Shown: positions 26,984 to 51,029, counted from the first letter of the stretch. The stretch is DNA of 64,000 bases from Candidatus Doudnabacteria bacterium (GCA_003151625.1 PLYC01000007.1:2929-66928); one strand, 5' to 3'. Translations and numbers: made by a program. The notes: generated by a model not told the origin, from the letters alone.

Positions 26984-28021
26984 TCAGCGGCTATCAAAAT
27001 GCGTCAACTTTTTGAACTCCGCAAATCGTTTGTTTATATCGCGGGCGGTTATTTCCTGCAGTCGTTTTGTACCTAGCTTTTCCACGGAAAAAGAGGCCAA
27101 AACCGAACCCGCCACGCAGGCGCGTTTGAGGTTTTCCCAGGAAATATTATCTGCCTTTGCCAAATAGCCAAACATTCCGCCGGCAAAGCTGTCGCCCGCG
27201 CCGGTTGGGTCGGTTACGTCCTCCAGGGGAAATCCCGGAAGATGGAAAATTTCAACCCCCCCAAGCCCCCTCTTTTGAAAAGAGGGAGAGCTTCTGAACA
27301 TCAATAATCCGTATTCGCCTTGCTTTATAATCAGCGTCGCATTTTTACCCATCATCCCCATTATATGCTTTGCCCCCTTTACCAAATTGTGTTCGCCGCT
27401 AAGCTGGCGCGCTTCGGAATCGTTTATAATAAAAATGTTAATCTTTTTTAAAACTTCAGCCAACTGTTTTGGCGCTTTTTTTATCCACAAATTCATAGTA
27501 TCCAGCCCGACAAATTTTGGCTTTTTAATTTGAGCCAGCACTTCCAATTGTAGGGAAGGGTGGATATTGCCCAAAAAAACATACGGCGATTGTTTATGTG
27601 CCGCCGATAACTTTGGCTTGAATTGTTCAAATACACCCAGTTTTGTAAATAAAGTGGTACGGTTGTTTAAATCAAAACTGTATTTGCCGCCCCAGGCAAA
27701 AGTTTGGCCGGCAGATTGTTCCAGATCCGATAAATCTATATTTTTGCCGGATAGAATCACCCGATACTTATTAGTAAAATCTTTTCCCACAGCCCCAACC
27801 AAGCTAGGTCTCGAAAAATTACTCGCAGCCAAACAAAAATAGCTCCCGCTACCGCCCAAAGTCTTGTTTACTTTCCCAAACGGCGTTTCTATGCTGTCAA
27901 AAGCCACACTGCCGACAATTAACAAATTTGAAGTTGACCCCGTTAAAGGTCCAGTGCTTTTAGGCACTGGCAATCGCCTTTGGCGATTGACTTTTAACGG
28001 GGTTGACGATTTTTTATTCAT
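26984..28021 (-). CDS. PfkB-family carbohydrate/nucleoside kinase (ribokinase-like)
   Basis: DPTGAGDSFAGG PfkB signature 2 and N-terminal GG region. The first approx 28 codons overlap a triple-hairpin palindrome (27940-28018), so an alternative TTG start at LLIVGS is possible. An internal palindrome cccctcttttgaaaagaggg lies at 27250-27292. Confidence 0.7.
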   Translation of the reverse strand: MNKKSSTPLKVNRQRRLPVPKSTGPLTGSTSNLLIVGSVAFDSIETPFGKVNKTLGGSGSYFCLAASNFSRPSLVGAVGKDFTNKYRVILSGKNIDLSDLEQSAGQTFAWGGKYSFDLNNRTTLFTKLGVFEQFKPKLSAAHKQSPYVFLGNIHPSLQLEVLAQIKKPKFVGLDTMNLWIKKAPKQLAEVLKKINIFIINDSEARQLSGEHNLVKGAKHIMGMMGKNATLIIKQGEYGLLMFRSSPSFQKRGLGGVEIFHLPGFPLEDVTDPTGAGDSFAGGMFGYLAKADNISWENLKRACVAGSVLASFSVEKLGTKRLQEITARDINKRFAEFKKLTHFDSR

Positions 28022-28192
28022 GGTCTAATATTAACATATAATATGAATTTACAAAATTTCCAATCAGCAAACATGTTAATGCCTCTTCCTTTGTGGAAGC
28101 GGCCTGATTGGAATTAATCAATTTTAAGTCTAATTGATTTCATCCACGCCCCTTTCACAGGGGGTGTTTTTGTTTTATCTAGAGGAGGAGAC

Positions 28193-28501
28193 ATGCAATC
28201 GAATGGAATTAAATTGCAAGCAGGTTTGGCCTGTTTGTATTGCAACTATGCCCTCCAGAAAAGGAGGGGATGGGAGCACGTCGATATTTGCCAAAAGGAA
28301 GAGTGTGATCCTCACGGCAGCGGGGATCCCAGGCGGTGCCCAAATTGCGGAAGCGGCCATTTTGTGTTTATGGCCGAGGCAAAAGGCAGCGTACAGTTGC
28401 AGTGTTCGGTTTGCGATTCGTTCTTTGAGTCGCGGCACCTTACTCGGCGGTTGGCCGTTATGATTCCGGACGCTCTTAGTTTATCCGGGGAGCCGCGCTA
28501 A
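28193..28501 (+). CDS. High-GC zinc-ribbon protein with four CxxC pairs
   Basis: CLYC, CQKEEC, CPNC, CSVC. RBS ggaggagac. Strong terminator immediately downstream. Confidence 0.45.
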   Translation: MQSNGIKLQAGLACLYCNYALQKRRGWEHVDICQKEECDPHGSGDPRRCPNCGSGHFVFMAEAKGSVQLQCSVCDSFFESRHLTRRLAVMIPDALSLSGEPR

Positions 28502-28536
28502 CATTAGCGCTCGTCTCCCCGGGCAACATTTTTTAT
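28485..28536 (+). terminator. Rho-independent terminator
   Basis: ccggggagccgcgctaacattagcgctcgtctccccgg followed by gcaacattttttat. Confidence 0.65.
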
Positions 28537-28551
28537 GATAAAATATAATCT

Positions 28552-29103
28552 ATGAACAGTTCGTCAGAAATAAATCCCCATATTAGTGAAGCAAGATTAA
28601 GGATCCCCGAAGCCTGGCCTCCAATCGAAACGGATATTGGCAAAGTGGCTGAATACGAAGCCAAATTAGAAGAAACGCTCAAACTTTTAGGCTGGCCGGA
28701 ATCGGATGTTTTGGACGCGTCCATGGTTTTCCGTGAGTGGCTGCTTAATGCGATGATCCATGGTAATATGGGATTATTCCAAAATAAGGGAGAGGATACT
28801 AAGGAGTGGGAAGAGAGAATTAAGACAGCTCAAAATTTACCAGAAGTCAAAGCCAAACGATTATACGTAAATATTAATGCAACTGGCAACCGTTTAACGG
28901 TGGAAATTCAGGATGAAGGCAAGGACAGCAGGGAATTTTGGCTGGAAAACAAGCAGCCCGACGCTCTCCAGGAACCCACAAAGTGGCATTCCGGGAGGGG
29001 AGGGATTTTGGCACAAGCTTTCACTAATGAAATGAGTTTTGAAAAAAATAATAAAGGCATTAAGGTGATTTTTGTCAGAGATTTAACAAAGCGCTTGAGA
29101 TAG
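28552..29103 (+). CDS. HATPase_c-type anti-sigma-factor-like serine kinase (RsbW/SpoIIAB-like)
   Basis: N-box EWLLNAMIHGN and G-box GRGGIL in a 183-aa protein. No STAS partner seen nearby. Confidence 0.5.
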   Translation: MNSSSEINPHISEARLRIPEAWPPIETDIGKVAEYEAKLEETLKLLGWPESDVLDASMVFREWLLNAMIHGNMGLFQNKGEDTKEWEERIKTAQNLPEVKAKRLYVNINATGNRLTVEIQDEGKDSREFWLENKQPDALQEPTKWHSGRGGILAQAFTNEMSFEKNNKGIKVIFVRDLTKRLR

Positions 29104-29391
29104 ACGAGGCTGTTGACATCGAATTATGACAAACGATTTTTCCCAAATAAAAAAATCCGCTTTTAGGCGGATTTTAGAGACTAGTAAAACATCAATTAGT
29201 ATTGGAATTTTCTTTTTTCAAATTAACCTTCTTTTTTCTGCTGACTAACGCATCCTCCGGCTTGCCCCGGCAAGGTGATCATAACTGACGGGGTCTTCCA
29301 TGACCCAGCCATACGGATGGATTAAAGGATCTTCCTCGTGCATTCTGTCCATATGCCCAGGCTGGGATTTGTGTTCGGTATTCCTCATAAT

Positions 29392-30909
29392 TTACCCCAT
29401 GCTATGCCTTAGTATTGCGGCTTGCTCAATTAGTTTGCCGGCGTTTTTGCCGTTGCGGAATTGTTTGTGCAGGCGAGCCGAGACGAGCTGGTGTTCCTGT
29501 TCGTTTAAATATTTTGGCGTAAACGGTTTGCCTAAATATTTTTCTATTTCTTCAACGTCTTTAATAATGTCTTTCCATGCCGGATATTTTTTGGCCAAGT
29601 TCACCAAACCTTGCCGGTAAAAAAATTTGCCGGCAAAATATAAATCATGCTTTAAATTTTTATAATGTTTTTCCAGCAATTCCAAATTGCCGGCTTTGCG
29701 CGCCGCGGCCAAACCCCGGCCGGTGCCAATTAGTTCTGGTGGGATGCCTAAGGAATAAAGCACGGCAGTAAAACTAATGGCCCTGGGCAGGCTGACTTTG
29801 CCCATGCCGCGACTGTATCCAAACAGGCCAATGTGCTGGACGCGTTCGCGCCTTTTAGGTATGTGTTTGGCCAGGTCGTTTACCAAAGGCGCTATACCTT
29901 CCACGGTTTGTTTGTAGGCGGCCTCAAATGGCTTAATGGCTTCAATTAGCTGTTTTTCTTCTTCAGCAGTCATAATTACAGCTTTACTTTTTGGCAGGCC
30001 TGTTTCTAAAGCTTTAATTGCTTTTATTACTGTGGCTTTGGGGTAATCATATCTAAACGCGCTTTGGATTGTCACCGTTCTAATTCCTTGGTATTCTTTT
30101 ATAAATCTTTCCGGCCGCAAAGGATATAAACCGCCGCGGAACGGCAAAGCCCCGCAACCAATAACCGGAAATAAATCTATTTTATGTTTTTTGGCGAATT
30201 TGGTGTAACGCGACAGTGCGATTTTTATGGCAATTACGGTTGGTACAATTCCGGAATTTAATGCCGGATCTGAGCGTGCGACATATGGCCTTAAATACGG
30301 CGGGTTAAAACCAAAAATCTTTTTGTGCTCATGCAAATATTTTTCCAGAATTTTATCCGAATTTATTATGGTGCTTACTTGTTCGAACAAAGGAACCATT
30401 AAAACGTGGTTTAGCAAACCTTTCTCAAAACGGTTAAGCGGATGTTTTAAATTGGCAATCTCCCTGAAAGCTTCCTGAATAGCGAGCATTTCCTCCGCGC
30501 TTTCCGTCATTGGTAAAATAACTTCAAACAGCGGGGGGGTGTGCATGCCCACTTGTTTTGCCAGGCCGGCGGAACTTGCTATCCCCATTAAGGCTCGGCT
30601 CATTCTAAATTCCGTCTCAACTTTAGGGTTTGGCAAACGGAAAGTCAAAAATTTTTCTTTGCCCAGGGGGTGCTTTTTAAAGTATTCATAGTATTGAGCC
30701 ATCAGGCGTTCTAAAATAGCTTCGTCTACCAGTTTGCCTTCCCAGTCCCATTTGTATTCGCTTATGCCCAAATCTGAAAAAGACAAAAATAATTCCTTGG
30801 CTTCTTCTATGGTTGGAATAAAATTTTCAGTATGCCAAAAAGGCCTGGCGGCGTGGTCTGGATGCTGGGTGGCCATGGTGGCCGGTATTTTTCTTGCGAC
30901 TTTCTTCAT
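29392..30909 (-). CDS. ppcA: Archaeal-type phosphoenolpyruvate carboxylase (PepcA)
   Basis: MATQHPD near the N-terminus (archaeal-type PEPC hallmark). Approx 500 aa. GRGG and C-terminal NGK motifs. Confidence 0.75.
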   Translation of the reverse strand: MKKVARKIPATMATQHPDHAARPFWHTENFIPTIEEAKELFLSFSDLGISEYKWDWEGKLVDEAILERLMAQYYEYFKKHPLGKEKFLTFRLPNPKVETEFRMSRALMGIASSAGLAKQVGMHTPPLFEVILPMTESAEEMLAIQEAFREIANLKHPLNRFEKGLLNHVLMVPLFEQVSTIINSDKILEKYLHEHKKIFGFNPPYLRPYVARSDPALNSGIVPTVIAIKIALSRYTKFAKKHKIDLFPVIGCGALPFRGGLYPLRPERFIKEYQGIRTVTIQSAFRYDYPKATVIKAIKALETGLPKSKAVIMTAEEEKQLIEAIKPFEAAYKQTVEGIAPLVNDLAKHIPKRRERVQHIGLFGYSRGMGKVSLPRAISFTAVLYSLGIPPELIGTGRGLAAARKAGNLELLEKHYKNLKHDLYFAGKFFYRQGLVNLAKKYPAWKDIIKDVEEIEKYLGKPFTPKYLNEQEHQLVSARLHKQFRNGKNAGKLIEQAAILRHSMG

Positions 30910-30939
30910 TAAGAGTATTATGATATATGAAAGGGGTGT

Positions 30940-31566
30940 TTGTCAAAAATGGGCAGCCAAACCGAACTTATCGCGCTATTAAAGGCAGAGGGCGTGCTAA
31001 ACAACCCGGCCGTGATTAAAGCCATGAAGGCGGTCGATCGTGCCGATTTTGTTTTGCCCCGATACCGAAGTTTGGCGTACGAAAACTATCCTTTGTCCAT
31101 AGGCTTTGGCCAGACCATTTTCCAGCCGTACACCGTGGCGTTTATGCTCGAGCTTTTGAAGGTTAAAAAGGGTGAGAAAATTTTGGAAATCGGCGCGGGC
31201 AGCGGCTGGCAAACGGCCATGCTGTGCCAACTGGTGGGCAAGGCAGGGCGGGTGGTGGCCGTAGAAAGGCTGTCGAAGTTAAAACGGTTGGAACATATTA
31301 ATCTCGCCAAATGCCATTTATATCAAAATACAATCACGTTAATACAAGGCGATGGTAAGTTGGGCTATTTGGCGGCAGCCCCTTATGACAAAATTATTGC
31401 CGCTGCAGCCGGATCAGGGATTCCCGAAGCCTGGAAACAGCAGCTGAAAATTGGCGGTAAAATTGTAGCGCCGGTAAAACACAGTATTTGGGAAATTAGC
31501 AAACTTTCGGCAAAATCCTTTAAAATAATCAGGCATTGGGGTTTTTCTTTTGTTCCTCTGGTATAA
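30940..31566 (+). CDS. pcm: Protein-L-isoaspartate O-methyltransferase
   Basis: LEIGAGSGWQTA SAM-binding motif. PIMT-family blocks. Confidence 0.8.
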   Translation: MSKMGSQTELIALLKAEGVLNNPAVIKAMKAVDRADFVLPRYRSLAYENYPLSIGFGQTIFQPYTVAFMLELLKVKKGEKILEIGAGSGWQTAMLCQLVGKAGRVVAVERLSKLKRLEHINLAKCHLYQNTITLIQGDGKLGYLAAAPYDKIIAAAAGSGIPEAWKQQLKIGGKIVAPVKHSIWEISKLSAKSFKIIRHWGFSFVPLV

Positions 31567-31615
31567 AGTTTAAATTTGTTATAATTACAGCAGAGAAATT
31601 TCTAACCTCTAACCT

Positions 31616-32161
31616 ATGAACCTCCATCCAGTGTTTGTCCATTTCCCCGTAGCCTTACTTACAGTTTACGCGTTAATGGAATTGGTTCGTTTTAAAAAAG
31701 TAATGTCCCAACCGTACTGGTTTTACCTCAAGGCGGTATTTTTAACGATAGGCGGCCTGGGGGCTTTACTGGCTTTGTATACCGGTGATATGGCTCGTTC
31801 CGCGGTTCGTCAGGGGGACTTTGTTGTAGCCATAAATAATTTTAAACAGGTTTTAAATGTCCATGAAAACTTTGCTCACTTGTCCGTGGCAATTTTTGGG
31901 CTCTTGGCGGCGAGCTATTTATTTTTGTGGCTCCAGCGGGAAAATTTTTCGGCTTTTGCGGAGAAGATAAATCTCGGCGCCCTGTGGAAATTGTTACTTA
32001 AATTTGCTCGTTTTTTTGTGGAAACCCGGTTTGTAATTTTTATGGCCTTAGCCGGCTTAATTTGTATAACCATAACCGGCGGTCTCGGCGGCGTTATGGT
32101 CTACGGCACCTCGGCCGATCCATTTTTTGGCATAATATATCATTTGTTGTTTCCATCCTAA
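31616..32161 (+). CDS. DUF2231-like membrane protein
   Basis: MNLHPVFVHFPVALL N-terminus and four TM helices. Confidence 0.4.
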   Translation: MNLHPVFVHFPVALLTVYALMELVRFKKVMSQPYWFYLKAVFLTIGGLGALLALYTGDMARSAVRQGDFVVAINNFKQVLNVHENFAHLSVAIFGLLAASYLFLWLQRENFSAFAEKINLGALWKLLLKFARFFVETRFVIFMALAGLICITITGGLGGVMVYGTSADPFFGIIYHLLFPS

Positions 32162-32191
32162 TTCATAATTTAAACTTCATTATTTATATCT

Positions 32192-32265
32192 GCGGGATTA
32201 GTACAATGGCAGTATGAGACCTTCCCAAGGTTTAGACACGGGTCCGATTCCCGTATCCCGCTCCA
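32192..32265 (+). tRNA. tRNA-Gly (anticodon CCC)
   Basis: Acceptor GCGGGAT/ATCCCGC. D-arm GTAC-AATGGCA-GTAT. Anticodon arm AGACC-TTCCCAA-GGTTT. T-arm ACGGG-TCCGATT-CCCGT. Discriminator T plus encoded CCA. Resembles E. coli tRNA-Gly acceptor and T regions. Confidence 0.85.
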
Positions 32266-32307
32266 GCCCTTTTTTAAAAGTATTTTAAAATTAACTAAAA
32301 AAATTAA

Positions 32308-32598
32308 ATGGCCATGAAAATAACAGATAGACAATATCTAACGCTAAGTGTTATTGGTTTGGTTTTTGTGCTGATGGGAACAGGGTGGTTATTTTTTTAT
32401 ACTAAATGGCTACTCTATTCACCTTTAATCGGGGGAATTATTTCAGTAATTGTACTTTTGAAAGCCAGTAAATCTGTTCATAAAAAAATTGCTTGGGTTA
32501 CTTTGGTCATTTTATTCTTAGAAATTGCTTTTGTTGGTTATCTTTATTATTCTTTGTTCCATGGCGGTTTTGATATGAATTGGCAACAGCCGGCGTAG
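32308..32598 (+). CDS. Cassette gene: 96-aa three-TM membrane protein
   Basis: First gene after tRNA-Gly. Hydrophobic. Confidence 0.45.
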   Translation: MAMKITDRQYLTLSVIGLVFVLMGTGWLFFYTKWLLYSPLIGGIISVIVLLKASKSVHKKIAWVTLVILFLEIAFVGYLYYSLFHGGFDMNWQQPA

Positions 32599-32625
32599 AA
32601 CTTAAGCAATACTTTTAACTATTTC

Positions 32626-32656
32626 CGTCCGAACATCATTCCATAGCCCGCTCCAG
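32626..32656 (+). repeat. R1: pseudo-tRNA-Gly 3'-end direct repeat
   Basis: atttccgtccgaacatcattccatagcccgctccag. The last 11 nt equal the tRNA-Gly acceptor 3' strand plus CCAG. Repeated at 33053 and 34199. Confidence 0.65.
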
Positions 32657-32701
32657 CATTATAAACAAAATAAATAAAATTTAATCTTAAAAAATAAAAT
32701 T

Positions 32702-33022
32702 ATGAAATATTTGGTTAGCAAGCGCTGGGTTGTATGGTTAATCGGAATTATTTTCACATTTTGGCTATTTATTGGAACTAGCTTAAACGGCATAAGCTTG
32801 ATAGGTATTTTTGTTGGCGCTATCTATCTAATACCGCCATTGTTTTTTGCTTTCATAAATAAGATTTTTGACAAGCGGCGTAAAGCTCAAAACCCCAATC
32901 AAAATATAAAAGATTATAATATAATTGATTTTTGTTTATTAGTCTTAATTATAATTTTTGAGGCTTTAACTGTTGGTGGAATAATCTATTTTTTGTATCA
33001 ATACTTTACACAAGTTAAATAA
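32702..33022 (+). CDS. Cassette gene: 106-aa membrane protein
   Basis: Three TM segments. Starts approx 45 nt after R1. Confidence 0.45.
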   Translation: MKYLVSKRWVVWLIGIIFTFWLFIGTSLNGISLIGIFVGAIYLIPPLFFAFINKIFDKRRKAQNPNQNIKDYNIIDFCLLVLIIIFEALTVGGIIYFLYQYFTQVK

Positions 33023-33052
33023 TTGTTACCGCCAGGTATTAGTAGCCATTTT

Positions 33053-33091
33053 AACTATTTCTGTCCGAACATCATTCCATAGCCCGCTCCA
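33053..33091 (+). repeat. R2: pseudo-tRNA-Gly 3'-end direct repeat
   Basis: atttctgtccgaacatcattccatagcccgctccaa. Confidence 0.65.
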
Positions 33092-33130
33092 ATTAAATTT
33101 TATATGTAAAAATGATTGAAACTTAAATAT

Positions 33131-33907
33131 ATGCCTGACAGTTTTGAACTATCACGCAACGCCGAACAATATTTAAATAAATCTGATTATAGGGATTCCG
33201 CCCAACAATTCCAATTAATAAAATTGCTTTTTGAATATGCAGAACAACAAGGACTTATGGCAAGTAAATACAGTGATTATCATGTTGACCTTTCTAATCC
33301 CGCGGCGGATACTTCTACTGATAATCCCAAAGCAATTTCATTGCCACCAAATTTTGCTCTCCTGGTAACAGATCAGCCGGGAGAATACTTTATTGTTGAT
33401 TATAAAAATGCCCCAAAAAAAATTACCCATCCCAAGTTTGCGTTTTTAAATGAAGAGGCGCGGGGAAGGGAAATATTATTATCAACAGCAAGAAAACAGG
33501 GACAGACAGACCAAAAAATTGGTGAAATTAAATTTGCGGAAACCAATAGCCCCGACAGTGGCAAAAAAATCGAAGTTTCAATTACCCAATCTGTAAATAA
33601 TAAAAGTTATAAAAGTATTAACGATGCCGAAGTCGTAAAGCCTCATGGTCAACTTTTGCGAACTTACGAACTTGATCCCAAAGGGATAAAAATACCCAAA
33701 CGTTTACACATAAGTAGGATTGATGAATCCTATTTTGAGAAAGATGGTCGACGCGTTCAAGTAAGATTGGGGAGGGAATTTGAAGTATCCAATAAAATCG
33801 TATCAGATAATGTGCTAAGCACCTACGAAGAGTTCTATTTGGTGGGCAGGCCGATTCAAAGGATAGTGGCTTCTATATCCATTGAGGGTCCTGTAAATGA
33901 GCCTTAA
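33131..33907 (+). CDS. Cassette gene: hypothetical soluble protein (258 aa from ATG 33131)
   Basis: Long ORF. No recognisable domain. Confidence 0.5.
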   Translation: MPDSFELSRNAEQYLNKSDYRDSAQQFQLIKLLFEYAEQQGLMASKYSDYHVDLSNPAADTSTDNPKAISLPPNFALLVTDQPGEYFIVDYKNAPKKITHPKFAFLNEEARGREILLSTARKQGQTDQKIGEIKFAETNSPDSGKKIEVSITQSVNNKSYKSINDAEVVKPHGQLLRTYELDPKGIKIPKRLHISRIDESYFEKDGRRVQVRLGREFEVSNKIVSDNVLSTYEEFYLVGRPIQRIVASISIEGPVNEP

Positions 33908-33970
33908 TCCGTTACTATTAGTATTGGAGATGCTTCAAAAGTTATATTTGAGGATAAAAATAAAGGGGTA

Positions 33971-34183
33971 ATGGTTAAAATTGACGGAGATGAAAAACAA
34001 TTGGAATTATTTAAACAGGATCCGGCTTATGCAGCTATTTTTAAAGACCCGCCGGATGTAAGCGAATTTATAAAAAATATAAAAGATAAAATACAGGTTT
34101 TGCGGGAAGATTGGGATAAGCCTGAAACGGTTTTTGGTCAAAATTTGGCCATAGAGAAACCCGGCAAAGAACTAGAAGCATAA
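33971..34183 (+). CDS. Cassette gene: hypothetical 70-aa protein
   Basis: RBS aaagggg upstream of ATG. Confidence 0.4.
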   Translation: MVKIDGDEKQLELFKQDPAYAAIFKDPPDVSEFIKNIKDKIQVLREDWDKPETVFGQNLAIEKPGKELEA

Positions 34184-34198
34184 AACAGCTAGTTGTTT

Positions 34199-34237
34199 AT
34201 AATTTCCGTCCGAACATCATTCCATAGCCCGCTCCAG
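34199..34237 (+). repeat. R3: pseudo-tRNA-Gly 3'-end direct repeat
   Basis: aatttccgtccgaacatcattccatagcccgctccag. Confidence 0.65.
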
Positions 34238-34294
34238 CCTCCGCCAAGGCTACGGCCGGCTTACGCCAACAGAAGATTTATCGAAACTTAGATT

Positions 34295-34486
34295 ATGGAA
34301 CACAAAGAAGCATCAATCATCTTAATAAGTTTGTTGAACAAAAATCTGTTTGACATCGAAGAGAAAGAGGCGGTTTTAACCGCCATCGGCGTTCTCGCTT
34401 GGACTTCGTTGTCTAAAAGCAAAATAAAAGCCATAAGAGATAAGCGCGAGAAATTAAAGAATGGCGACTTGAAACTTCAATTATAG
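34295..34486 (+). CDS. Cassette gene: hypothetical 63-aa protein
   Basis: Starts approx 57 nt after R3. Confidence 0.35.
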   Translation: MEHKEASIILISLLNKNLFDIEEKEAVLTAIGVLAWTSLSKSKIKAIRDKREKLKNGDLKLQL

Positions 34487-34595
34487 AATTTACCCGTCAA
34501 AATTTTGCGATGGAAATTTATAAAACTCCTTATTTTATTAAGCTACAAAAAAATTAAATTTGCCAAATAAATTTGGGCAAAATTTAGGCGGGTAA

Positions 34596-35039
34596 ATGAA
34601 AATCACCCTTTGCGGAAGTGCGGGGTTTGTGGTGGAGATGAATGCACTGGCCGGGCAGTTAAAAAAATTAGGACACGATGTTAAATCCATGCCGTTGAAA
34701 TTTACGGATGGAAATGGAAAAGTTTGGCAAACTTTGGATTATCATAAATTTAAAAAATCCAAACCATTTAACAATCCTGAATTTTTGAATAACCACCACG
34801 ACCGTATCCGCGAACATTTTAGTAAAGTCGCTTGGTCAGACGCGATTTTGGTTGCCAATTACGACAAAAACGGAATTACCAATTACGTTGGCCCGAACAC
34901 GTTAATGGAAATGGGGCTTGCTTTTTATCTAAGAAAAAAAATTTATTTACTTAACCCGGTTCCGGATACTCCTTGGGAAGAGGAAATGTTGGGAATGAAA
35001 CCGGTTGTTGTAAGCGGAGTCTTAGAAGTAATAAAATAA
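34596..35039 (+). CDS. Nucleoside 2-deoxyribosyltransferase-like (NDT-fold) protein
   Basis: MKITLCGSAGF N-terminus and SDAILVANYDKNGITNYVGPNTLMEMGLAFYLRKKIYLLNP match the NDT-family pattern. Confidence 0.45.
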   Translation: MKITLCGSAGFVVEMNALAGQLKKLGHDVKSMPLKFTDGNGKVWQTLDYHKFKKSKPFNNPEFLNNHHDRIREHFSKVAWSDAILVANYDKNGITNYVGPNTLMEMGLAFYLRKKIYLLNPVPDTPWEEEMLGMKPVVVSGVLEVIK

Positions 35040-35155
35040 AAGTCATCAAATCATTTATTACACCATAAAAGTAAACTGGAAGAAGGGAACCTTCTTCCAG
35101 TTTGTAAAAAAGTCAACTTTTAGATATAATTAAGGCATTAAAAGCCTTATTTTTT

Positions 35156-36445: not shown

Positions 36446-36466
36446 AGCGGCAAGAAAATATTCTTT

Positions 36467-37093
36467 ATGTTGTCATCAGAAGAACAAATAACTCTGGATA
36501 CATATAATAATATCGCCCCGCAATGGGTAAGCAAAAATTATGTTTTGGATTTTTGGCTTGAGGAATATCAAATATTCCATAGTTATTTATCGGCTGGTAA
36601 AATTATTGATCTTGGCTGTGGTGGGGGGAGGGACAGTGTTTGGTTTAAAAAAAATGGTTACGATTATGTTGGTGTGGATATATCAGAGGGTATGCTGGCT
36701 GAAGCCCATAAGCGTCATCCCGACACTCGCTTTATGCAACAGAGCTTGTATGACCTAGATTTTCCTAAGAACAGTTTCGATGGTTTTTGGTCAGCGTGCT
36801 CGTTTTTGCATATCCCAAAAGAACGGATAAATGTGGTTTTGGGTAATATCAAAAATATTTTGAAGCCCGGGGCTGTTGGTTTTATTTCTATTAAGCAAGG
36901 GACAAAGTTTGTAAAAAAAGCATGGCACGAAAGCGGAAGAGAAAGATTCTTTGCCTATTATGAACAGGATGAGTTTGCAAAAATATTAAAAGACCAGGGT
37001 TTTGATATTTTGCAAACAGCTATAAGGTCACCGGAAAATTCTGATCAAGACGAAACGTTTTTAATTTTTTACGTAAAGTTAGTCACAAAATAA
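36467..37093 (+). CDS. Class I SAM-dependent methyltransferase
   Basis: IIDLGCGGGRDSVWF (motif I) and VGVDISEGM. Confidence 0.65.
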   Translation: MLSSEEQITLDTYNNIAPQWVSKNYVLDFWLEEYQIFHSYLSAGKIIDLGCGGGRDSVWFKKNGYDYVGVDISEGMLAEAHKRHPDTRFMQQSLYDLDFPKNSFDGFWSACSFLHIPKERINVVLGNIKNILKPGAVGFISIKQGTKFVKKAWHESGRERFFAYYEQDEFAKILKDQGFDILQTAIRSPENSDQDETFLIFYVKLVTK

Positions 37094-37506
37094 TGGAACT
37101 CCAGGTCGGCGTTAAGGCGCTGTTAAAAAATAAAGAAGGGAAGTATTTACTGCTTAGGCGGAACCCAAAAAAGTATCCGGAAGTCGGGCCGAACTGGGAT
37201 ATTATAGGCGGCAGGATAAATCCGGGTTTGCCGCTTTTAGACAATCTGAAAAGGGAAATAATGGAAGAAGCGAGATTGGATTATCATGGAACGCCAAAAT
37301 TAGTGGCCGCGCAGGATATTTTAAAAATTCCCGACCGCCACGTGGTTCGTTTAACTTTTACTGGAGATATGGAAGGGGAACCAAAAGTTGACGAAGAACA
37401 TTTGGAAGCCAAATGGTTTACGGCCGCCGAAATAAAAGCAATGAGTGTAACCGAACTTGATAGTTTTTTTAAGGAACTAATTGATAAAGAAAATATTAAT
37501 TTATAA
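37093..37506 (+). CDS. NUDIX hydrolase
   Basis: Nudix box GGRINPGLPLLDNLKREIMEEARL. ATGA-type overlap with the upstream stop. Confidence 0.7.
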   Translation: MELQVGVKALLKNKEGKYLLLRRNPKKYPEVGPNWDIIGGRINPGLPLLDNLKREIMEEARLDYHGTPKLVAAQDILKIPDRHVVRLTFTGDMEGEPKVDEEHLEAKWFTAAEIKAMSVTELDSFFKELIDKENINL

Positions 37507-37511
37507 AATTT

Positions 37512-37730
37512 ATGGAAATGCGGGGCGATGTCAGGGTTTATTCCGGAATTTTTCTTATTATTTTGGCCGCTTTGGCCGTGATTATTTTTTTAAAGCCAAA
37601 GGCAAAAACTACCAAACCAATAACGACTTTTGAGGAATGCCAGGCCGCAGGCTATCCGGTAATGCAAAGCTATCCGCCGCAGTGTACATTGCCCAACGGA
37701 AGATTTTTTGTTCAGCAGGTTGTTGAATAA
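37512..37730 (+). CDS. Small exported hypothetical protein
   Basis: TM/signal followed by Cys-containing short domain. Confidence 0.3.
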   Translation: MEMRGDVRVYSGIFLIILAALAVIIFLKPKAKTTKPITTFEECQAAGYPVMQSYPPQCTLPNGRFFVQQVVE

Positions 37731-37762
37731 AAGTAAGTTTAGAATTAAGTTGATATAATCAT

Positions 37763-37800
37763 CGACCTGTAAAATTCACGGCCGTGAATTTTACAGGTCG
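37763..37800. terminator. Palindromic hairpin of the TTCACGGCCGTGAA family
   Basis: cgacctgtaaaattcacggccgtgaattttacaggtcg. Centre identical to 13811 hairpin, outer stem different (covariation). Confidence 0.5.
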
Positions 37801-37914
37801 TGTAATATTTATAAACCCTGTTAGAAACTATTTGGCTAAAGGACAGGCCAGAAATTTTTAAGAAATAAGCGCGTAAATCCTAAGAAGAATAAAAAAATAG
37901 TCATTCCTAACTGG

Positions 37915-38772
37915 ATGAAGAAAATTCTCGGGGTAATTATTATATTAATTTTGGCTGTAGCCACCTGGCACTACCGTTTTTTCGAGCAGAAATTTATCCA
38001 AAAACTACCGGAGCTAGCCAAGGCGCCTTCTGTGGCTAATATTGTCCAGGATATTTCCACGCCGCCGCCTTTGGTTGGACAAAGGAATAATCCAAACTCC
38101 AGCTTAACTAGAGCCGGCGTAATTACATGGACGAATACTAACCGTGAACAAAACGGCGACCTTTTGCCGCTCACGGAAAATTCACAACTGGACAAGGCGG
38201 CGCAATTAAAGCTGGCTGATATGTTTAAACAACAGTATTTTGAACATATAAATCCGCAGGGAGTTGGGCCGGCCGATTTGGCCAAACAGGCCGGATATAA
38301 TTTTATTTCTGAAGGAGAAAATTTAGCGTTGGGAAATTTTACCGACGACCAAGATCTTCTCACAGCCTGGATGAACAGCCCCGGCCACAGAGCCAACATT
38401 TTAAACGTTAAATACCAGGAAATTGGCGTGGCCGTTGGTCAGGGTCTGTATGAAGGGCATAAAACTTGGCTGGCGGTTCAGGAATTCGGCAAACCGGCCA
38501 GCAGTTGCCCAACCATAGATTTAAATTTAAAAGCGCAGGTCAATAGCTTGCAGGCGGATGTGAATAAATTAAGCCCCCAACTGGCTTCGTTAAAAAGTCA
38601 GATAGATTCCGCTTCCCCCAGAACCCAAAGCGATTATAACTCTTATAACCAAATTGTCGCTCAGTACAACAGTATGGTGGGAATTTACAACAATAAAGTG
38701 GATATTCTAAAATTAGTCACCGGCCAATATAACAGCGAGGTTAAGGCGTACAATGCGTGCCTGGGTAGTTAG
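37915..38772 (+). CDS. CAP/SCP/PR-1 domain secreted protein with C-terminal coiled coil
   Basis: Signal/TM. CAP motifs GHYTQ-like GHRANILN and HFEHINPQG region. C-terminal Q/N-rich heptad repeats. Confidence 0.6.
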   Translation: MKKILGVIIILILAVATWHYRFFEQKFIQKLPELAKAPSVANIVQDISTPPPLVGQRNNPNSSLTRAGVITWTNTNREQNGDLLPLTENSQLDKAAQLKLADMFKQQYFEHINPQGVGPADLAKQAGYNFISEGENLALGNFTDDQDLLTAWMNSPGHRANILNVKYQEIGVAVGQGLYEGHKTWLAVQEFGKPASSCPTIDLNLKAQVNSLQADVNKLSPQLASLKSQIDSASPRTQSDYNSYNQIVAQYNSMVGIYNNKVDILKLVTGQYNSEVKAYNACLGS

Positions 38773-38918
38773 CTTCGCGTGTAACCATTCCAAAATTTAG
38801 TCTGAAATAAATAATCAGCGTAAAAATTTACTCCATACTTAATACGAGATTCTGGGATGGTATTTGTCTTTGGAATAGGTTATAATTAATTAGCTTGAAT
38901 TACAATTAAATTAAATTT

Positions 38919-39200
38919 ATGGGATTAATGGATAAGTTAAAAGACATAAACGAAATGCGCAAGCAGGCCAAACATATGGAAAGCCTGCTGGCCACAGAAA
39001 TAGTAAGCGGAAAATCTTCCGGTGGGAAAATTATTTTAACTATGGACGGCAACCAAAACATAAAGAGCGTGGAAGTTTCCCCGGATATTGTGGGTGATAA
39101 AAGTGAAATAGGCAGACACATTCGTTCGGCCATGGAAGATTTATTTAAACATCATAAAAAGATGCTGCAGGGAAAATTTGGGAACATGCTTCAGGGATAG
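38919..39200 (+). CDS. ybaB: YbaB/EbfC nucleoid-associated protein
   Basis: MGLMDKLKDINEMRKQAKHMESLL...SGGKIILTMDGNQNIKSVEVSPD typical YbaB. Confidence 0.75.
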   Translation: MGLMDKLKDINEMRKQAKHMESLLATEIVSGKSSGGKIILTMDGNQNIKSVEVSPDIVGDKSEIGRHIRSAMEDLFKHHKKMLQGKFGNMLQG

Positions 39201-39267
39201 GAATTAGGAAGTATGAATTAGGAAGTAAGACTAAAATCATAATTCTTGATTCATAATTTAAACACAA

Positions 39268-40194
39268 ATGTTAAATAAATACGTAGCTACAATTATTATC
39301 AGCGGCTTGCTAATAGCGCCTAGTTTCGCTATGGCTCTTAACATGCCCACCAGCGGCAACGATTTGGCCAATATGCAAGGTGTAAGCGCGCAGGCATATA
39401 TAGTGCAGGACGCGACTACCGGGCAGGTGCTCATAGATAAAAATGCCGATATGCCCTGGACGCCAGCATCGCTAACTAAATTAGTTACGGCTTTGGTGGT
39501 GCTAGACACCAAACCCAAACTCACTAAAACGGTTGCCATAACAAACCAGGATCAAACGCTTGGCGCCTGCACTTCCGGCGGCGCCTGCATAAAGGCCAAG
39601 GTCGGCGTAAAATTTACTGTAGACGGGCTGTTCCATGCCGCCCTGCTACCTTCGGCCAATAACGCAGCCAGCGCACTGGCCAGAAGCACCGGACTTTCTA
39701 TGGATCAATTCGTCGCCAAAATGAATCAAAAAGCCGCCTCATTAGGTGCTGTCGGGACTCATTTTAACGAACCCACTGGCATGGATCCGGACAATAAAAT
39801 CACCGCGGCCGATTACGCTAAAATTGTTACTGCGGCCTTTTCTAACGCTTATTTAAGGGCAATTGCAGGACTAAACAATTACTCGTTGCGTTCCACTAAT
39901 AATTCAAGGTATAATCAAACTATTAAAAATACAGACAAACTGTTAACCGATGCCGATGTGGAAATTTTAGGAGCCAAAACCGGCTATTTAACGGAATCCA
40001 AATATAATTTTGCCTCGCTTATAAAATACAACGGCCAGGAATTAGCGGTGGTGGTTTTGGGGGAAGACCATTTATACACAGCCTTCGGTGAAACCAAACT
40101 GTTAACAGATTTGGCCGGACAAGCACAATTGCTGGCTTTGGTTAATTGGGGACCAATGGTTTTGGGAACGAGTACGGTGGCGAGCGCAAATTAA
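39268..40194 (+). CDS. D-alanyl-D-alanine carboxypeptidase (PBP5-like, S11)
   Basis: ASLTK (SxxK), LPSANN (SxN), KTGY (KTG), plus signal peptide. Confidence 0.75.
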   Translation: MLNKYVATIIISGLLIAPSFAMALNMPTSGNDLANMQGVSAQAYIVQDATTGQVLIDKNADMPWTPASLTKLVTALVVLDTKPKLTKTVAITNQDQTLGACTSGGACIKAKVGVKFTVDGLFHAALLPSANNAASALARSTGLSMDQFVAKMNQKAASLGAVGTHFNEPTGMDPDNKITAADYAKIVTAAFSNAYLRAIAGLNNYSLRSTNNSRYNQTIKNTDKLLTDADVEILGAKTGYLTESKYNFASLIKYNGQELAVVVLGEDHLYTAFGETKLLTDLAGQAQLLALVNWGPMVLGTSTVASAN

Positions 40195-40253
40195 ATTAGG
40201 TTAATAAGAATAATTAGATTTTTTTCGCCAAAATAATTAATAATAATTTCAAA

Positions 40254-40937
40254 ATGAAGAAAATTATCACCATCATAATAGTTGTACTAGTAGTCTTGGG
40301 CTTGGGTTATTATTTGTTTAAAATCTCCCCGGATCAGACCCAGCAATCCACATCCACAGCGTACAACGCCGCAATTAACACCTCATCTATTAAAGCAATC
40401 TCTTCCCCCCCGGATTTTGACCCAAGTATAGATAACTACCAAGGCGACGCCAAAGCCAAGAATGTATTTATTGAATACGCCGACTACGAATGTCCAGCCT
40501 GCGCTTCTTACAGCGATATGCTTAAACAAGTACCCACCACGTTTAAAAATACGGTTTTTGTGTTTCGCTATTTTCCTTTAACCCAAATTCACCCAAACTC
40601 CGTGGAATCCGCGCTGGCCGCCGAGGCCGCCGGAGCGCAGGGCAAGTATTGGGAAATGCACGACCTGTTGTTTAAAAATCAGGTTGATTGGCAAAGCTTG
40701 GGCGACCCAATCGATGTTTTTGTGCAGTATGCACAAACAGTCGGCGTCTCCAACATAAACCAATTTAAAAGCGACATAACTAGCAAAAAATATCTATCGA
40801 AAATTCAAACCGACAGCGATCAGGCTCTGGGTCTCAATTTGTCCGGCACACCAAGTTTTCTTTTTAACGGACACACTTTACAAAATGCCGACATAGCCGG
40901 AATGGAAAAGCAGTCACAGGCGTTTTATATAAAATAA
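40254..40937 (+). CDS. DsbA-family thiol:disulfide oxidoreductase
   Basis: CPAC active site within thioredoxin fold and GTPSFLFNG. Confidence 0.7.
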   Translation: MKKIITIIIVVLVVLGLGYYLFKISPDQTQQSTSTAYNAAINTSSIKAISSPPDFDPSIDNYQGDAKAKNVFIEYADYECPACASYSDMLKQVPTTFKNTVFVFRYFPLTQIHPNSVESALAAEAAGAQGKYWEMHDLLFKNQVDWQSLGDPIDVFVQYAQTVGVSNINQFKSDITSKKYLSKIQTDSDQALGLNLSGTPSFLFNGHTLQNADIAGMEKQSQAFYIK

Positions 40938-40954
40938 ATCTCTATGTGTCATCC

Positions 40955-41075
40955 CGGAATTTTTTACAGTTTAGTATATCATTAGTCATAAAAAATATCC
41001 GGGATCCAGGAATGAGCTTGTCACTGAACCCCGGATATTTTTCAGCCGATAATAATCTAGTAACTGAAAAATTCC
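40955..41075. repeat. Intergenic palindromic cluster of CCGGAAT/ATTCCGG and ATCCGGG/CCCGGAT units
   Basis: tcatcccggaatttttt ... aaaaatatccgggatcc ... gaaccccggatattttt ... gaaaaattccggggtgg in mirrored order. Confidence 0.4.
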
Positions 41076-41078
41076 GGG

Positions 41079-41894
41079 GTGGCAAGAAATCAATTAATTT
41101 TAATGACTTATAAAAAATTCGCGACAGATTTAGCCAAGCAAGCCGGAGCAATAATCCGCAAAAACTTTAAGCACGGGATGCAGAAAGACTGGAAAAGCAA
41201 CGATACGCCGGTTACCGTTACCGACACCAAAATTAACAGCCTGGTAATTGCCGCGGTAAAAAAGAGGTTCCCGACCCACGATGTTTTGGGCGAGGAAGAA
41301 AGCAGCCGTACTAACAACAGCAAATATTTATGGGTTTGCGATCCGGTGGACGGTACTATCCCATTTTCGCACGGCATCCCGACTTGCGTGTTTTCCTTGG
41401 CTTTGGTTATTGACGGCCTGCCGATGCTTGGCGTAATTTTTGATCCGTTTATGAATCGTTTGATTTTTGCGGAAAAAGGCAAAGGCGCGTTTTTAAACGG
41501 CAAAAAAATCCATGTCAGCAACCATGGGATTAAAAATTCGGTGCTGGATTGGGAATCGCCGAGCCTAATGACGAAGCTTGTCGAAACATACAAAAATTGC
41601 CTGCCTGTGAAATTAAATAGTTATATTTACGGCGGCATGCTGGTGGCCATGGGAGAGCTGGTTGCTTCAATGTACAGTTGGCATTTTGCCCACGACTGCG
41701 CTTCCCTGAAAATTATTATAGAAGAGGCCGGCGGCAAGGCAACAGACCTGCAAGGCAATGACCAAAGGTACGACGGTAAAGTCAAAGGCATGCTGATAAG
41801 TAACGGCGTTGTCCATAATCAGCTAATTAAAATTGCAAAGACGCATAGGAGTCTTTTTTTCGGCAAAACGGGAAACGGCGAGTTTCAATTTTAA
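41079..41894 (+). CDS. Inositol monophosphatase family protein
   Basis: HDVLGEEES and WVCDPVDGT metal-binding motifs. Confidence 0.7.
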   Translation: MARNQLILMTYKKFATDLAKQAGAIIRKNFKHGMQKDWKSNDTPVTVTDTKINSLVIAAVKKRFPTHDVLGEEESSRTNNSKYLWVCDPVDGTIPFSHGIPTCVFSLALVIDGLPMLGVIFDPFMNRLIFAEKGKGAFLNGKKIHVSNHGIKNSVLDWESPSLMTKLVETYKNCLPVKLNSYIYGGMLVAMGELVASMYSWHFAHDCASLKIIIEEAGGKATDLQGNDQRYDGKVKGMLISNGVVHNQLIKIAKTHRSLFFGKTGNGEFQF

Positions 41895-41945
41895 ATTAAA
41901 AATAATTTTAAAGGGATTTACCGCAGTTTGTAAATAAAAAAATGC

Positions 41946-41993
41946 ACCCCACGCCTCAACTCTCTCCTATAGAGCGATGGCGTGGGGTTTTTG
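41946..41993 (+). terminator. Rho-independent terminator
   Basis: ccccacgcc...ggcgtgggg ttttt. Confidence 0.65.
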
Positions 41994-42020
41994 GTTGGAC
42001 GGGGAGGGTCGGGAAGCGTC

Positions 42021-42515
42021 CTACTTCTTGATAGAGTAAGCGGGCGGAGAGGTGTAAGCAACCCCTTTTTTTCGCAGCAGCTTTTTGTATTCTTCAAAGA
42101 GCTGCTTTCCGTTCTTGTCTTCGATTGAGAGAAATTTCGTTTTGGAGAACTCCCTCCGAAGAGCCGCCGCCTGTTCCTTGTTTTCGGTCCAGCCGAAGGT
42201 TTCGACGCTGCCGTCGTCCTTCAAGCCGAACCGTGAAATGGCGGACAGATGCTCGCCGCCATCACGAGAGTAATACTCGTTTCGAGGCAAGCCGGTAGAT
42301 GTTAGAACGACCAGGAATTCCTGGGCGGCATAATCCGCCGGATTTTTCGTGATAGGAACGCCAGTATCAAGCCCGTCCCCACCTTTAGGGAGAGGGATGT
42401 CCTTGGTTACTCCAATAGGAACCTTGTCTCCGGGTACCGGCTGGACTTCCCCTTGGGCGAAGCCTGTTCCGATGAACGACAACGCGCCCACCGCGATGAG
42501 TACCGTCAATTTCAT
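42021..42515 (-). CDS. High-GC secreted hypothetical protein
   Basis: Signal peptide MKLTVLIAVGALSFIGTGFAQGE. AGGAGG RBS. GC content clearly above neighbours. Confidence 0.5.
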   Translation of the reverse strand: MKLTVLIAVGALSFIGTGFAQGEVQPVPGDKVPIGVTKDIPLPKGGDGLDTGVPITKNPADYAAQEFLVVLTSTGLPRNEYYSRDGGEHLSAISRFGLKDDGSVETFGWTENKEQAAALRREFSKTKFLSIEDKNGKQLFEEYKKLLRKKGVAYTSPPAYSIKK

Positions 42516-42565
42516 AGTGACCTCCTGCGTTACATACTTTACATCTATAACGTTTTTATGTCAAA

Positions 42566-43849
42566 ATGTGTGGTATGGCAATAAAAGGAAAAAAAGTTTT
42601 AATAGCGCAAAACCCTCTCTCCCGCTCGGCAACCTCGCGGCACTCTCCCCCAACCGCCTTCGCCAAGGCTCCGGCGGTCAAGAAGGGGGAGAGGGAAAAG
42701 GTTCTAATCGCTCTATCCGGCGGAATAGATTCCGCGGTTTCGGCTTATCTGCTGGTAAAAAAAGGCTACCAAGTAGAAGCGGCTTTTATGAAGAATTGGT
42801 CTTCAACCGAAGGCCTTTTGAAAAACGAATGCCCGTGGCTGGTGGACAGGCAGGACGCTTTGCGTGTGGCCCCGTTTTTGCGCATTCCGCTGCACACTTT
42901 GGATTTTGAAAAGCAATACCAAAAAAACGTAATGGAATATTTTTTTAACGAATACAAAAAAGGCCGTACGCCCAACCCGGACGTAATGTGCAACAAGGAA
43001 ATTAAATTTAAACTATTGTATAACTGGGCAATGAAAAACGGGTTTGATTATTTAGCGACCGGACACTACGCACGAATAAAGTTTCAGACTAGCCAAAATC
43101 ACGGCCGTGATTTAAGCAAGTATACACTTTCGCGAAGTGCGGATGAATTTAAGGATCAGACTTACTTTATCTACAATATACAAACCGAGCAGCTCCCGCA
43201 TATTTTGTTTCCTATTGGCGGAATGAAAAAGACCGCGGTAAGAACGCTTGCCAGAGAGCTAAAACTGCCCAACGCGGAAAAAAAGGAAAGTATGGGCTTG
43301 TGCTTTGTAGGGAAGATAAGATTGAAGGATTTTTTGGAGCAGAGGTTAAAGCCAAAAGCGGGGCCGATTGTGTTTATGCAATCATCGATACCCTCATCTG
43401 TCGTTCAGATGCATTCACGACATCTTCCCCCAAAGGGGGAAGGGGGAGACACTGTCCTCGGTCAACATCAAGGCCTCTATAACTATACCATTGGCCAGCG
43501 ACAGGGGATAAAAGTCGGCGGGGGCGGCCCTTATTACGTGGTGAAAAAAGATTTAAAGACCAACACGTTGTATGTGACCAATAATCCCGATGATGAAAAT
43601 TTGCTGACCAGGGAAATCCAAATCCACAGCATAAATTGGATTAGCCCGGGCTACCAACTAAAAACCATAAACTATAAACTAACGGGCCGTTACCGCCACC
43701 AGGGCGAACTTGTACCGCTGACCATAAAGCAAATAAAAAAAGATCTCTACAGTGTTACGTTTGTCAAACCCCAAAAAGCTGTTGCCTCGGGACAAAGTTT
43801 GGTATTATATAAAGGTAAGGAATGCTTAGGCGGCGGAGTAATAGTATAA
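42566..43849 (+). CDS. mnmA: tRNA-specific 2-thiouridylase MnmA
   Basis: PP-loop SGGIDS. MnmA C-terminal blocks YTIGQRQG. Carries two GC-rich palindromic in-frame insertions (approx 42609-42700 and 43380-43455). Alternative start at 42575. Confidence 0.8.
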   Translation: MCGMAIKGKKVLIAQNPLSRSATSRHSPPTAFAKAPAVKKGEREKVLIALSGGIDSAVSAYLLVKKGYQVEAAFMKNWSSTEGLLKNECPWLVDRQDALRVAPFLRIPLHTLDFEKQYQKNVMEYFFNEYKKGRTPNPDVMCNKEIKFKLLYNWAMKNGFDYLATGHYARIKFQTSQNHGRDLSKYTLSRSADEFKDQTYFIYNIQTEQLPHILFPIGGMKKTAVRTLARELKLPNAEKKESMGLCFVGKIRLKDFLEQRLKPKAGPIVFMQSSIPSSVVQMHSRHLPPKGEGGDTVLGQHQGLYNYTIGQRQGIKVGGGGPYYVVKKDLKTNTLYVTNNPDDENLLTREIQIHSINWISPGYQLKTINYKLTGRYRHQGELVPLTIKQIKKDLYSVTFVKPQKAVASGQSLVLYKGKECLGGGVIV

Positions 43850-45809: not shown

Positions 45810-45916
45810 CCAAAGAAAAATTTCGAGATGGTACAAAATAGAACCAGCCGATAAACCCGTCTCGACCGGCTCATCGAGCCGAGGTGGATCGGCGCGCTAC
45901 ATTTAATTAAATTAAA

Positions 45917-49553: not shown

Positions 49554-49559
49554 ACGTTT

Positions 49560-51003: not shown

Positions 51004-51029
51004 ATTTTAAAATAAATTCAGGGTGCTTT

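Follow-up and report, generated by a model that had tools for sequence, protein, structure and literature searches.

Palindromic hairpin inserts within mnmA and a pfkB-family gene of a Candidatus Doudnabacteria genome fragment

Palindromes that are translated as part of a gene have been recorded in Rickettsia and in a few further bacteria; as far as our searches show, they are unreported for the Candidate Phyla Radiation (CPR). In Rickettsia, which has a small genome, the Rickettsia palindromic elements (RPEs) are hairpin-forming repeats that occur in frame in unrelated housekeeping genes, are translated, and are compatible with the fold of the protein (PMC10969869). Intragenic repetitive extragenic palindromes (REPs) of 20-40 bp have been found in known genes, often as dimers or groups encoding 20-30 aa; their usual places are the N-terminus or a linker, and they are considered neutral and transposon-like (Di Nocera et al. 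2013, PMC3733652). Inverted repeats inside coding sequence, which are long, perfect and reach 284 bp, are described for mitochondrial genes of Nematomorpha (PMC6649704). The present study deals with four hairpin-forming inserts (sites 1 to 4) in mnmA and in a pfkB-family gene of a 64,000-nt stretch of DNA from Candidatus Doudnabacteria bacterium (PLYC01000007.1:2929-66928, GCA_003151625.1), hereafter called the window, in which all positions are counted from the first letter. A preliminary description of this DNA had proposed that one or more classes of palindromic elements colonise coding sequence, and this proposal is supported by the recurrence of modules, which turn up again in different genes, in intergenic DNA and in further genomes.

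Unexplained length variation of conserved proteins is common in the CPR and hampers annotation, alignment and phylogeny. Here, the length variation of two enzymes was traced to identifiable DNA units, some of them near-identical in very different genomes. With a probability of roughly 60%, the four sites are palindromic insertions at the DNA level, 33-105 nt in length and composed of GC-rich hairpin modules, in permissive spots of housekeeping genes. Our literature search retrieved neither a report of such inserts for these bacteria nor a paper that contains the unit sequences.

Four inserts at orthologue indels

The window is AT-rich (GC approximately 0.39-0.50), and the names of its closest protein relatives suggest a Doudnabacteria-like host from the CPR. 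Sites 1 and 2 are located in mnmA, encoding the tRNA 2-thiouridylase (42566-43849, + strand; 427 aa; Pfam PF03054, PF20259 and PF20258), sites 3 and 4 in a gene for a PfkB-family sugar kinase (26984-28021, - strand; 345 aa; PF00294), hereafter pfkB. The proteins of this bacterial group are highly variable in length; MnmA orthologues range from 359 to 492 aa, the variation being restricted to few hot spots. For mnmA, 27 orthologous loci with DNA were compared. Among them the JGI contig L001 is syntenic with 34.1-49.5 kb of the window (about 15 kb) at 90-95% nucleotide identity. The relatives obtained when metagenomes were searched with PfkB were all distant (41-57% identity) and hardly helped in defining boundaries; the structure PDB 3KD6 could be aligned to PfkB residues 32-342. 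At all four sites, the boundaries of the inserts coincide with indels relative to orthologues.

Site 1 comprises 105 extra nt that are precisely absent from the aligned L001 mnmA, and both of its flanking repeats align to the same single stretch of L001 (10026-10041). The left repeat AAAAAGTTTTAATAGC (42591-42606, + strand), identical to the empty-site copy in L001, encodes KKVLIA, and the right repeat AAAAGGTTCTAATCGC (42696-42711, + strand) encodes EKVLIA; the two match at 13 of 16 positions and all three differences are synonymous. The hairpin previously described at 42609-42700 with these two peptides on either side is indeed present, the repeat being 16 nt long. The element body (42607-42695, + strand; 89 nt, GC 0.63) is not found in L001. 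On the same strand, its pyrimidine arm CCCTCTCTCCC (42613-42623) pairs with the purine arm GGGGGAGAGGG (42685-42695) in an outer stem of 11 bp, inside which hairpin A (42624-42641), a second pyrimidine run (42641-42651) and, nested in the hairpin loop, the 29-nt unit M3 CCGCCTTCGCCAAGGCTCCGGCGGTCAAG (42654-42682) are found.

Homologous elements occupy the same codon in the loci L003, L005 and L025, with partial homology in L009, and also in the proteins P0002, P0014, P0025 and P0035. The KKVLIA target is duplicated in all members of this family, with a perfect 16-nt repeat (16/16) in L005, and the spacings between the repeats amount to 75, 105 (window), 132 and 135 nt, each of which is a multiple of three. 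The members share the ends CAAAACCCTCTCTCCC... and ...GGGGAGAG and differ by entire modules within the loop of the terminal hairpin, which holds only AAAAA in L005, the 29-nt unit in the window, and a 60-nt double hairpin in L003 and L025. Another insert family, KKVLIALSA-[SP]RQARGA-...-KKVLIALSGG, is unrelated to the first and has a longer part of the same target duplicated. In the window, the first 43 residues of MnmA face just 17 residues of the Escherichia coli enzyme (PDB 2DER). Searches with the insert peptide of site 1 gave 0 matches, both word-indexed and by exhaustive HMMER, which is uninformative for a short query of low complexity.

The site 1 family is distributed patchily across the mnmA tree and is absent from L001 and L026, the nearest relatives of the window with DNA, while its absence from proteins known only as gene calls is unreliable, because starts may be called downstream. 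The right repeat of the window matches that of L025 at 15 of 16 positions, which is closer than the match to its own left repeat, and five mismatches between the window and L001 are clustered immediately upstream of the left repeat. Because of these two features, the element-bearing patch might have been imported by recombination.

Site 2 (43379-43447, + strand; residues 272-294) adds 66 nt in the form of a double hairpin. Its first hairpin is CATCTGtcgttCAGATG (43395-43411, + strand), and its second, CTTCCCCCaaaGGGGGAAG (43424-43442, + strand; 19 nt with an 8-bp stem), is the palindrome expected between 43380 and 43455. Residues 272-294 remain unaligned between residues 236 and 239 of the 2DER chain, so that the insert fills a two-residue turn of the E. 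coli protein between two MnmA domains. This point is empty in 15 of the 27 orthologues, which show the short form G-x-I-V-D-Q-D-G..., and the other 12 carry 39-147 extra nt, among them several unrelated structured sequences. Between the window and L001, the flanks are 93-95% identical, whereas the inserts themselves differ (CTTCCCCCaaaGGGGGAAG versus the L001 hairpin CCCTCTCCCagaGGGAGAGGG).

On the opposite strand, site 3 (27254-27295, - strand; residues 243-256, net gain 11 aa or 33 nt) corresponds to a gap of 11 residues against 3KD6. It contains the hairpin CCCTCTTTtgaAAAGAGGG (27268-27286, - strand; 19 nt, 8-bp stem), in agreement with the palindrome reported for 27250-27292. The insert is absent in five of seven close pfkB orthologues, the short forms of which read F-GKN-QIFHLPG.

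Site 4 (27932-28006, - strand) is an insert of 75 nt that covers codons 6-30. An outer stem of 11 bp, formed by ACCCCGTTAAA and TTTAACGGGGT (arms at 27937-27947 and 27993-28003), encloses two inner hairpins (27951-27970 and 27971-27989), all on the - strand, and the whole is flanked by GTCAAC repeats, which appear as GTTGAC on the + strand (27933-27938 and 28002-28007). The triple-hairpin palindrome of the preliminary description is there, but its stated extent, the first 28 codons, is slightly off; the insert lies behind a conserved ATG. The insert is missing from L108, L113 and L028, and also from the empty site inferred in L112, in which a different 42-nt hairpin is placed between 6-nt repeats and its removal gives MMKKSSN|LLIVG. 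Homologous elements were found in L110, L111 and L109. The flanking repeat measures about 5-6 nt in the window and is longer in L111 (8 nt) and L110 (18 nt). A CGTC motif next to site 4 is likewise present at the uninserted L112 site and, hence, represents native target sequence.

Upstream of pfkB, a promoter-like box TATATGTTAATATTA followed by the ATG (28022-28045, - strand) is conserved in L110, L109, L111 and the uninserted L028. The box lies only 5-6 nt before the start codon, which suggests that the pfkB mRNA might be leaderless or have a very short leader. From the conserved box-ATG context, this ATG can be taken as the start codon, and site 4 thus belongs to the reading frame; an alternative annotation, with site 4 as 5' untranslated region (UTR) and a downstream TTG start, was ruled out by the conservation of ATG and box even in the uninserted orthologue.

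Folding, base composition and reading frame

The inserts at sites 1 to 4 add 105, 66, 33 and 75 nt, respectively, contain no stop codons and encode 11-35 aa. The reading frame is thus kept at all four sites, as had been noted before. Since their lengths are multiples of three and stop codons are missing, the inserts are probably read through as extra loops. All-pyrimidine or all-purine arms can never contain a stop codon in any frame; five of the six frames are open at site 1, six at site 2, five at site 3 and two at site 4, and all six in the M3 consensus. Stop-free arms might, therefore, act as a survivorship filter for inserts. An intein or a self-splicing intron was discarded as explanation, given that the inserts encode only 11-35 aa and have no Rfam match: a scan of the entire window at the gathering threshold detected two tRNAs and nothing at the four sites, and a relaxed scan of 27150-28150 gave a single small RNA match at chance level.

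With regard to base composition, the characterization of the sites as GC-rich islands applies well to site 1 (GC 0.63) and weakly to sites 2, 3 and 4 (0.52, 0.55 and 0.49), compared with 0.43 in the rest of both genes. The folding z-scores for the sense and antisense strands are -1.6/-3.2 at site 1, -2.4/-0.9 at site 2, -0.3/-1.0 at site 3 and -8.5/-8.6 at site 4. The window as a whole is rich in hairpins, with 53 perfect ones having stems of at least 8 bp versus about 15 in shuffled sequences, and the 8-bp hairpins of sites 2 and 3 are unremarkable if regarded as hairpins alone; they are considered non-random because each lies exactly within an orthologue indel. A broader survey compared 25 internal lineage-specific mnmA segments of at least 10 aa with matched core segments of the same genes. 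The inserts fold at -0.32 versus -0.18 kcal/mol/nt for the core (Wilcoxon p = 1.8e-5), 13 of the 25 are more stable than the best of 20 controls, and their GC content is 0.51 compared with 0.43.

Such stable structures could also be explained by a function in the mRNA, such as ribosome pausing at domain boundaries, stabilization of a near-leaderless pfkB mRNA at its 5' end, or the masking of Shine-Dalgarno-like sequences. Site 4, with its z-score of -8.5, would fit this explanation, since it lies about 15 nt from the start codon, which closely follows the promoter-like box, as would the position of site 2 between two domains and the Shine-Dalgarno-like character of some purine arms. The arm GGGGAGAG is found 7 nt upstream of an in-frame GTG at the mnmA 5' ends of L003, L005 and L025, and the purine arm GGGGAGGG of L108 (696-740) is found 8 nt before an ATG. 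However, the codon that follows the Shine-Dalgarno-like arm in the window is GTT, which is no start codon, so a regulatory role of the Shine-Dalgarno-like arms is not supported there. Moreover, the sense strand is more stable in only 8 of 23 inserts and the antisense strand in 15 (p = 0.16), sites 1 and 4 belonging to the latter. This lack of a sense-strand bias disfavours selection for mRNA structure and points to palindromes at the DNA level; it is the reason why mRNA structure was rejected as the main account. The absence of the inserts from the closest relatives and many orthologues and the lack of any Rfam family match also speak against an mRNA function, which we regard as improbable. 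As a separate observation, the hairpin elements of L003, L005, L025 and L108 could create or mask translation starts.

Alternatively, selection might have acted on the proteins, with loops retained for purposes such as binding to a partner or to a host cell and hairpins arising as a by-product of Pro/Ser...Lys/Gly-rich coding. The positions in loops or at N-termini, the wide length variation of proteins in this group and the strict preservation of the frame would all be compatible with adaptive insertions. Nevertheless, the frame in which a given DNA unit is read changes from gene to gene, the unit is also found in non-coding DNA, and the peptides are not conserved between close relatives. The AlphaFold model of MnmA, calculated from an alignment of 20 sequences, is poor (mean pLDDT 55) and gives the inserts no ordered structure, which weakly supports a disordered state. 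On balance, we find little to recommend adaptive protein insertion as explanation.

Recurring modules and the origin of the inserts

Parts of the inserts recur outside their orthologous positions. Including the window, M3 is present in four Doudnabacteria loci, the other three copies matching at 22-23 of 24 nt: in L108 in the 5' UTR of a gene for phosphoenolpyruvate carboxylase, in L113 within the pfkB site 3 insert, where it is inverted and lies in the loop of a pyrimidine/purine hairpin, and in L018 between genes. A pattern scan of the uncultured viral contigs in IMG/VR detected M3 in 37 stretches with unrelated flanks and contig GC contents of 0.38-0.70, while we estimate the chance expectation at well below one. 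Conservation extends to three positions beyond the search pattern (29-34 of 36 copies), so that M3 can be defined as a sharply bounded unit of about 30 nt. In IMG/VR, M3 frequently stands right behind a TGA stop codon, and reversed copies frequently stand just upstream of a ribosome-binding site. No convincing copies of M3 were found in collections of cultured phages and plasmids.

A second unit, M1 (CCCNCCCCTAACCCCTCC..GGAGGGG), is not present in the window; it occurs at mnmA site 2 of L002, L023 and L009 and at the pfkB N-terminus of L112. In IMG/VR, 119 stretches match M1, compared with one for a control pattern in which TAA was permuted to AAT. M1 is about 35-45 nt long with sharp boundaries, and the contigs carrying M1 and M3 (L114-L150 and L166-L245) span GC contents of 0.34-0.73. 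One contig with a GC content of 0.69, presumably an isolate genome going by its identifier, contains four intergenic M1 copies. Likewise, the leader CCCTCATC and the second hairpin of site 2 (19/19) match a double-hairpin unit of several IMG/VR contigs (GC 0.53-0.66), in which the first hairpin is exchanged for a different, AT-richer one. The 19-nt core of site 3 is identical (19/19) to positions 10032-10050 of L006, where it forms part of an N-terminal mnmA insert and is read in a shifted frame. Furthermore, L018 carries a 41-nt unit twice, once between genes and once in mnmA, with 39 of 41 positions identical.

Taken together, the modules are found in either orientation, in differing frames, in genes as well as in intergenic DNA and nested in one another's loops, and they have been gained, lost or replaced between close relatives. 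This behaviour resembles that of non-autonomous mobile palindromes of the REP, RPE or MITE (miniature inverted-repeat transposable element) kind, and we infer that the modules are mobile and neutral. Hairpin modules would have reached N-termini and tight surface turns by insertion or by import and would be translated there as extra loops that are probably disordered. Two routes of spread can be envisaged: insertion with target duplication, as at site 1 and perhaps site 4, and homologous recombination of element-bearing alleles between lineages.

A different origin, in which nothing is mobile, must be considered as well. Replication template-switching or hairpin-primed slippage at fragile spots, followed by outward growth and arm-to-arm correction, could produce hairpins locally. 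The complete inserts are indeed unique in the window, the same hot spots hold different hairpins in different lineages, the direct repeats vary in length, and newer hairpins are placed in the loops of older ones. At the pfkB N-terminus of L110 (2326-2394), the sequence GTCAACCCCGTTAAAT stands forward, inverted and forward again around two small hairpins, an arrangement typical of replication template switching, and where hairpin A of site 4 differs from its L110 counterpart, the changes are paired so that the stem is retained. Local template switching is a real alternative for sites 3 and 4. However, it does not readily account for near-identical modules in unrelated genes, orientations, frames and genomes (M3, the L018 unit and the site 3 core being the examples), some of them shared with contigs of 0.38-0.70 GC. 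Moreover, the inserts are GC-richer than their surroundings and, on direct reading, are not inverted copies of neighbouring sequence. As a general explanation for the four sites we consider a purely local origin unlikely.

An even less credible explanation is chance or an assembly artefact, for example adapter-like hairpins introduced by sequencing. About 15 hairpins of 8 bp are expected by chance per 64 kb, and the sharp bounds of widespread units in very different assemblies could raise such a suspicion. Against it stand the many assemblies, produced independently in different projects, that have homologous inserts at identical codons, the location of inserts inside contigs, their preserved frame and their divergence between lineages, as well as the fourfold occurrence of M1 in the presumed isolate genome. 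We regard this explanation as very improbable.

Several findings weigh against the palindromic insertions proposed here. A second copy of any of the four inserts was not found in the window, and about 0.5 Mb of related loci contained no whole element except at orthologous positions. Nor is any of the four inserts a copy of another. The IMG/VR pattern scans gave 0 matches for the core of site 3 and for hairpin A of site 4; the 41-nt unit of L018 also had 0 matches. Flanking direct duplications are clear at site 1 and short at site 4, and none is present at site 2 or site 3. The direct repeats vary in length (5-6, 8, 16, 18 and about 24 nt), unlike those made by a single transposase with a fixed stagger. 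No transposase was identified among the 10 window ORFs scanned against Pfam, and the GTAG/CGTC tags are absent from sites 1-3 and from M3; within the site 1 family, GTAG occurs in the L005 copy only. The argument for translation of the inserts would come from frame preservation alone. Finally, pyrimidine/purine hairpins are in excess in coding DNA (p = 0.002), but the loci had been selected around mnmA and pfkB; because of this confounding, the excess was dropped as independent evidence. Given the long and variable flanking repeats, the nesting in hairpin loops and the missing GTAG/CGTC tags, the units may or may not move by transposition.

A more far-reaching version of the palindromic insertions can be offered only tentatively. 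It might be possible that hairpin micro-elements of 30-45 nt circulate across distant bacteria (contig GC 0.34-0.73), prefer single-stranded hairpin loops, and pile up, nested and translated, at few permissive codons of essential genes in compact Doudnabacteria genomes, being moved by some enzyme or repair pathway whose target duplications are long and variable. Examples would be M3 YCCNCCTTCGCCAAGGCTNCGGCGGRCARG, M1 and the double hairpin CCCTCATCC..CTTCCCCCAAAGGGGGAAG. If mobile, the units would be a source of new protein loops and of changes in gene starts and ribosome-binding sites in minimal genomes, and they would provide a tractable marker by which uncultured bacteria could be studied for DNA exchange. 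Without mobility, the recurrence of the modules needs another explanation.

The window also contains palindromes outside mnmA and pfkB. Hairpins of the CGCGGA type, which the preliminary description had named together with the four sites, lie inside the genes for ArgRS (15359-15444; gene 13937-15706) and RsmA/KsgA (63128-63190; gene 62779-63684), and at least 4 of about 63 genes in the window carry internal hairpins. A perfect palindrome of 41 nt, AACAATGGGCACCATTG[CT]G..C[AG]CAATGGTGCCCATTGTT, with two intergenic copies (45916-45956 and 56636-56676), represents a truly repeated family within the window. Three further intergenic palindromes (12948-12989, 13810-13847 and 37763-37800) have the centre TTCACGGCCGTGAA in common, and the last of them is 100% conserved in L001 (4723-4760). 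Long imperfect hairpins, mostly intergenic, were found at 62631-62771, 6947-7040, 12387-12465 and 63672-63751; their arms are built of short repeated motifs, for instance CGAAAT-like and GGAAATT-like ones, with a period of about 7-8 nt, and similar periodic arrays adjoin hairpin units in L018 and in the IMG/VR contig L133. A 13-nt palindrome, CCGCCTCCGGCGG, at the start of a DsbA-like gene in L001 (7192-7204) is absent from the window (around 40256) and represents a further small GC-rich hairpin indel between close relatives. The synteny between L001 and the window is lost right after a tRNA gene (49480-49550), where an island begins (49554-55916) that comprises 6.3 kb in the window and 4.2 kb in L001, with unrelated contents. 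Compared with Pfam, its ORFs gave only a PMT-family glycosyltransferase and a sub-threshold match to DUF4398.

Comparison with known palindromic elements

GC-rich palindromic units in an AT-rich genome are also represented by the mobile GC clusters of yeast mitochondria and the double-hairpin elements of Allomyces mitochondria, which are polymorphic, are sometimes located in frame in genes, and spread by gene conversion. These elements are organellar, and there is no evidence of a sequence relationship to the inserts described here. The coding palindromes of Nematomorpha are not short modular units common to several genomes, unlike those found in the present study.

Closer similarities exist to MITEs. 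Their terminal inverted repeats are like the outer stems of site 1 (42613-23/42685-95) and site 4, and their flanking direct repeats, noncoding nature and presence or absence between relatives have counterparts here, with direct repeats at sites 1 and 4. In contrast to MITEs, the flanking repeats are long and variable (5-18 nt or more) and two sites have no duplication; the window offered no candidate for a parent insertion sequence with the same terminal repeats. REPs resemble the present units in size, given that the hairpins of sites 2 and 3 have 19 nt and M3 has about 30 nt. The defining GTAG/CGTC tag of REPs is lacking at sites 1-3, copy number appears to be low here, and no REP-associated tyrosine transposase (RAYT) of the IS200/IS605 type was seen among the 10 ORFs scanned.

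RPEs measure approximately 100-150 bp, and their defined families are represented by tens to hundreds of copies in a genome. Unlike them, the four inserts are single-copy in 64 kb and are composites of modules of 20-45 nt; some of these modules are, also in contrast to RPEs, common to phylogenetically distant genomes. What both have in common is the hairpin-forming, in-frame and stop-free insertion into conserved genes.

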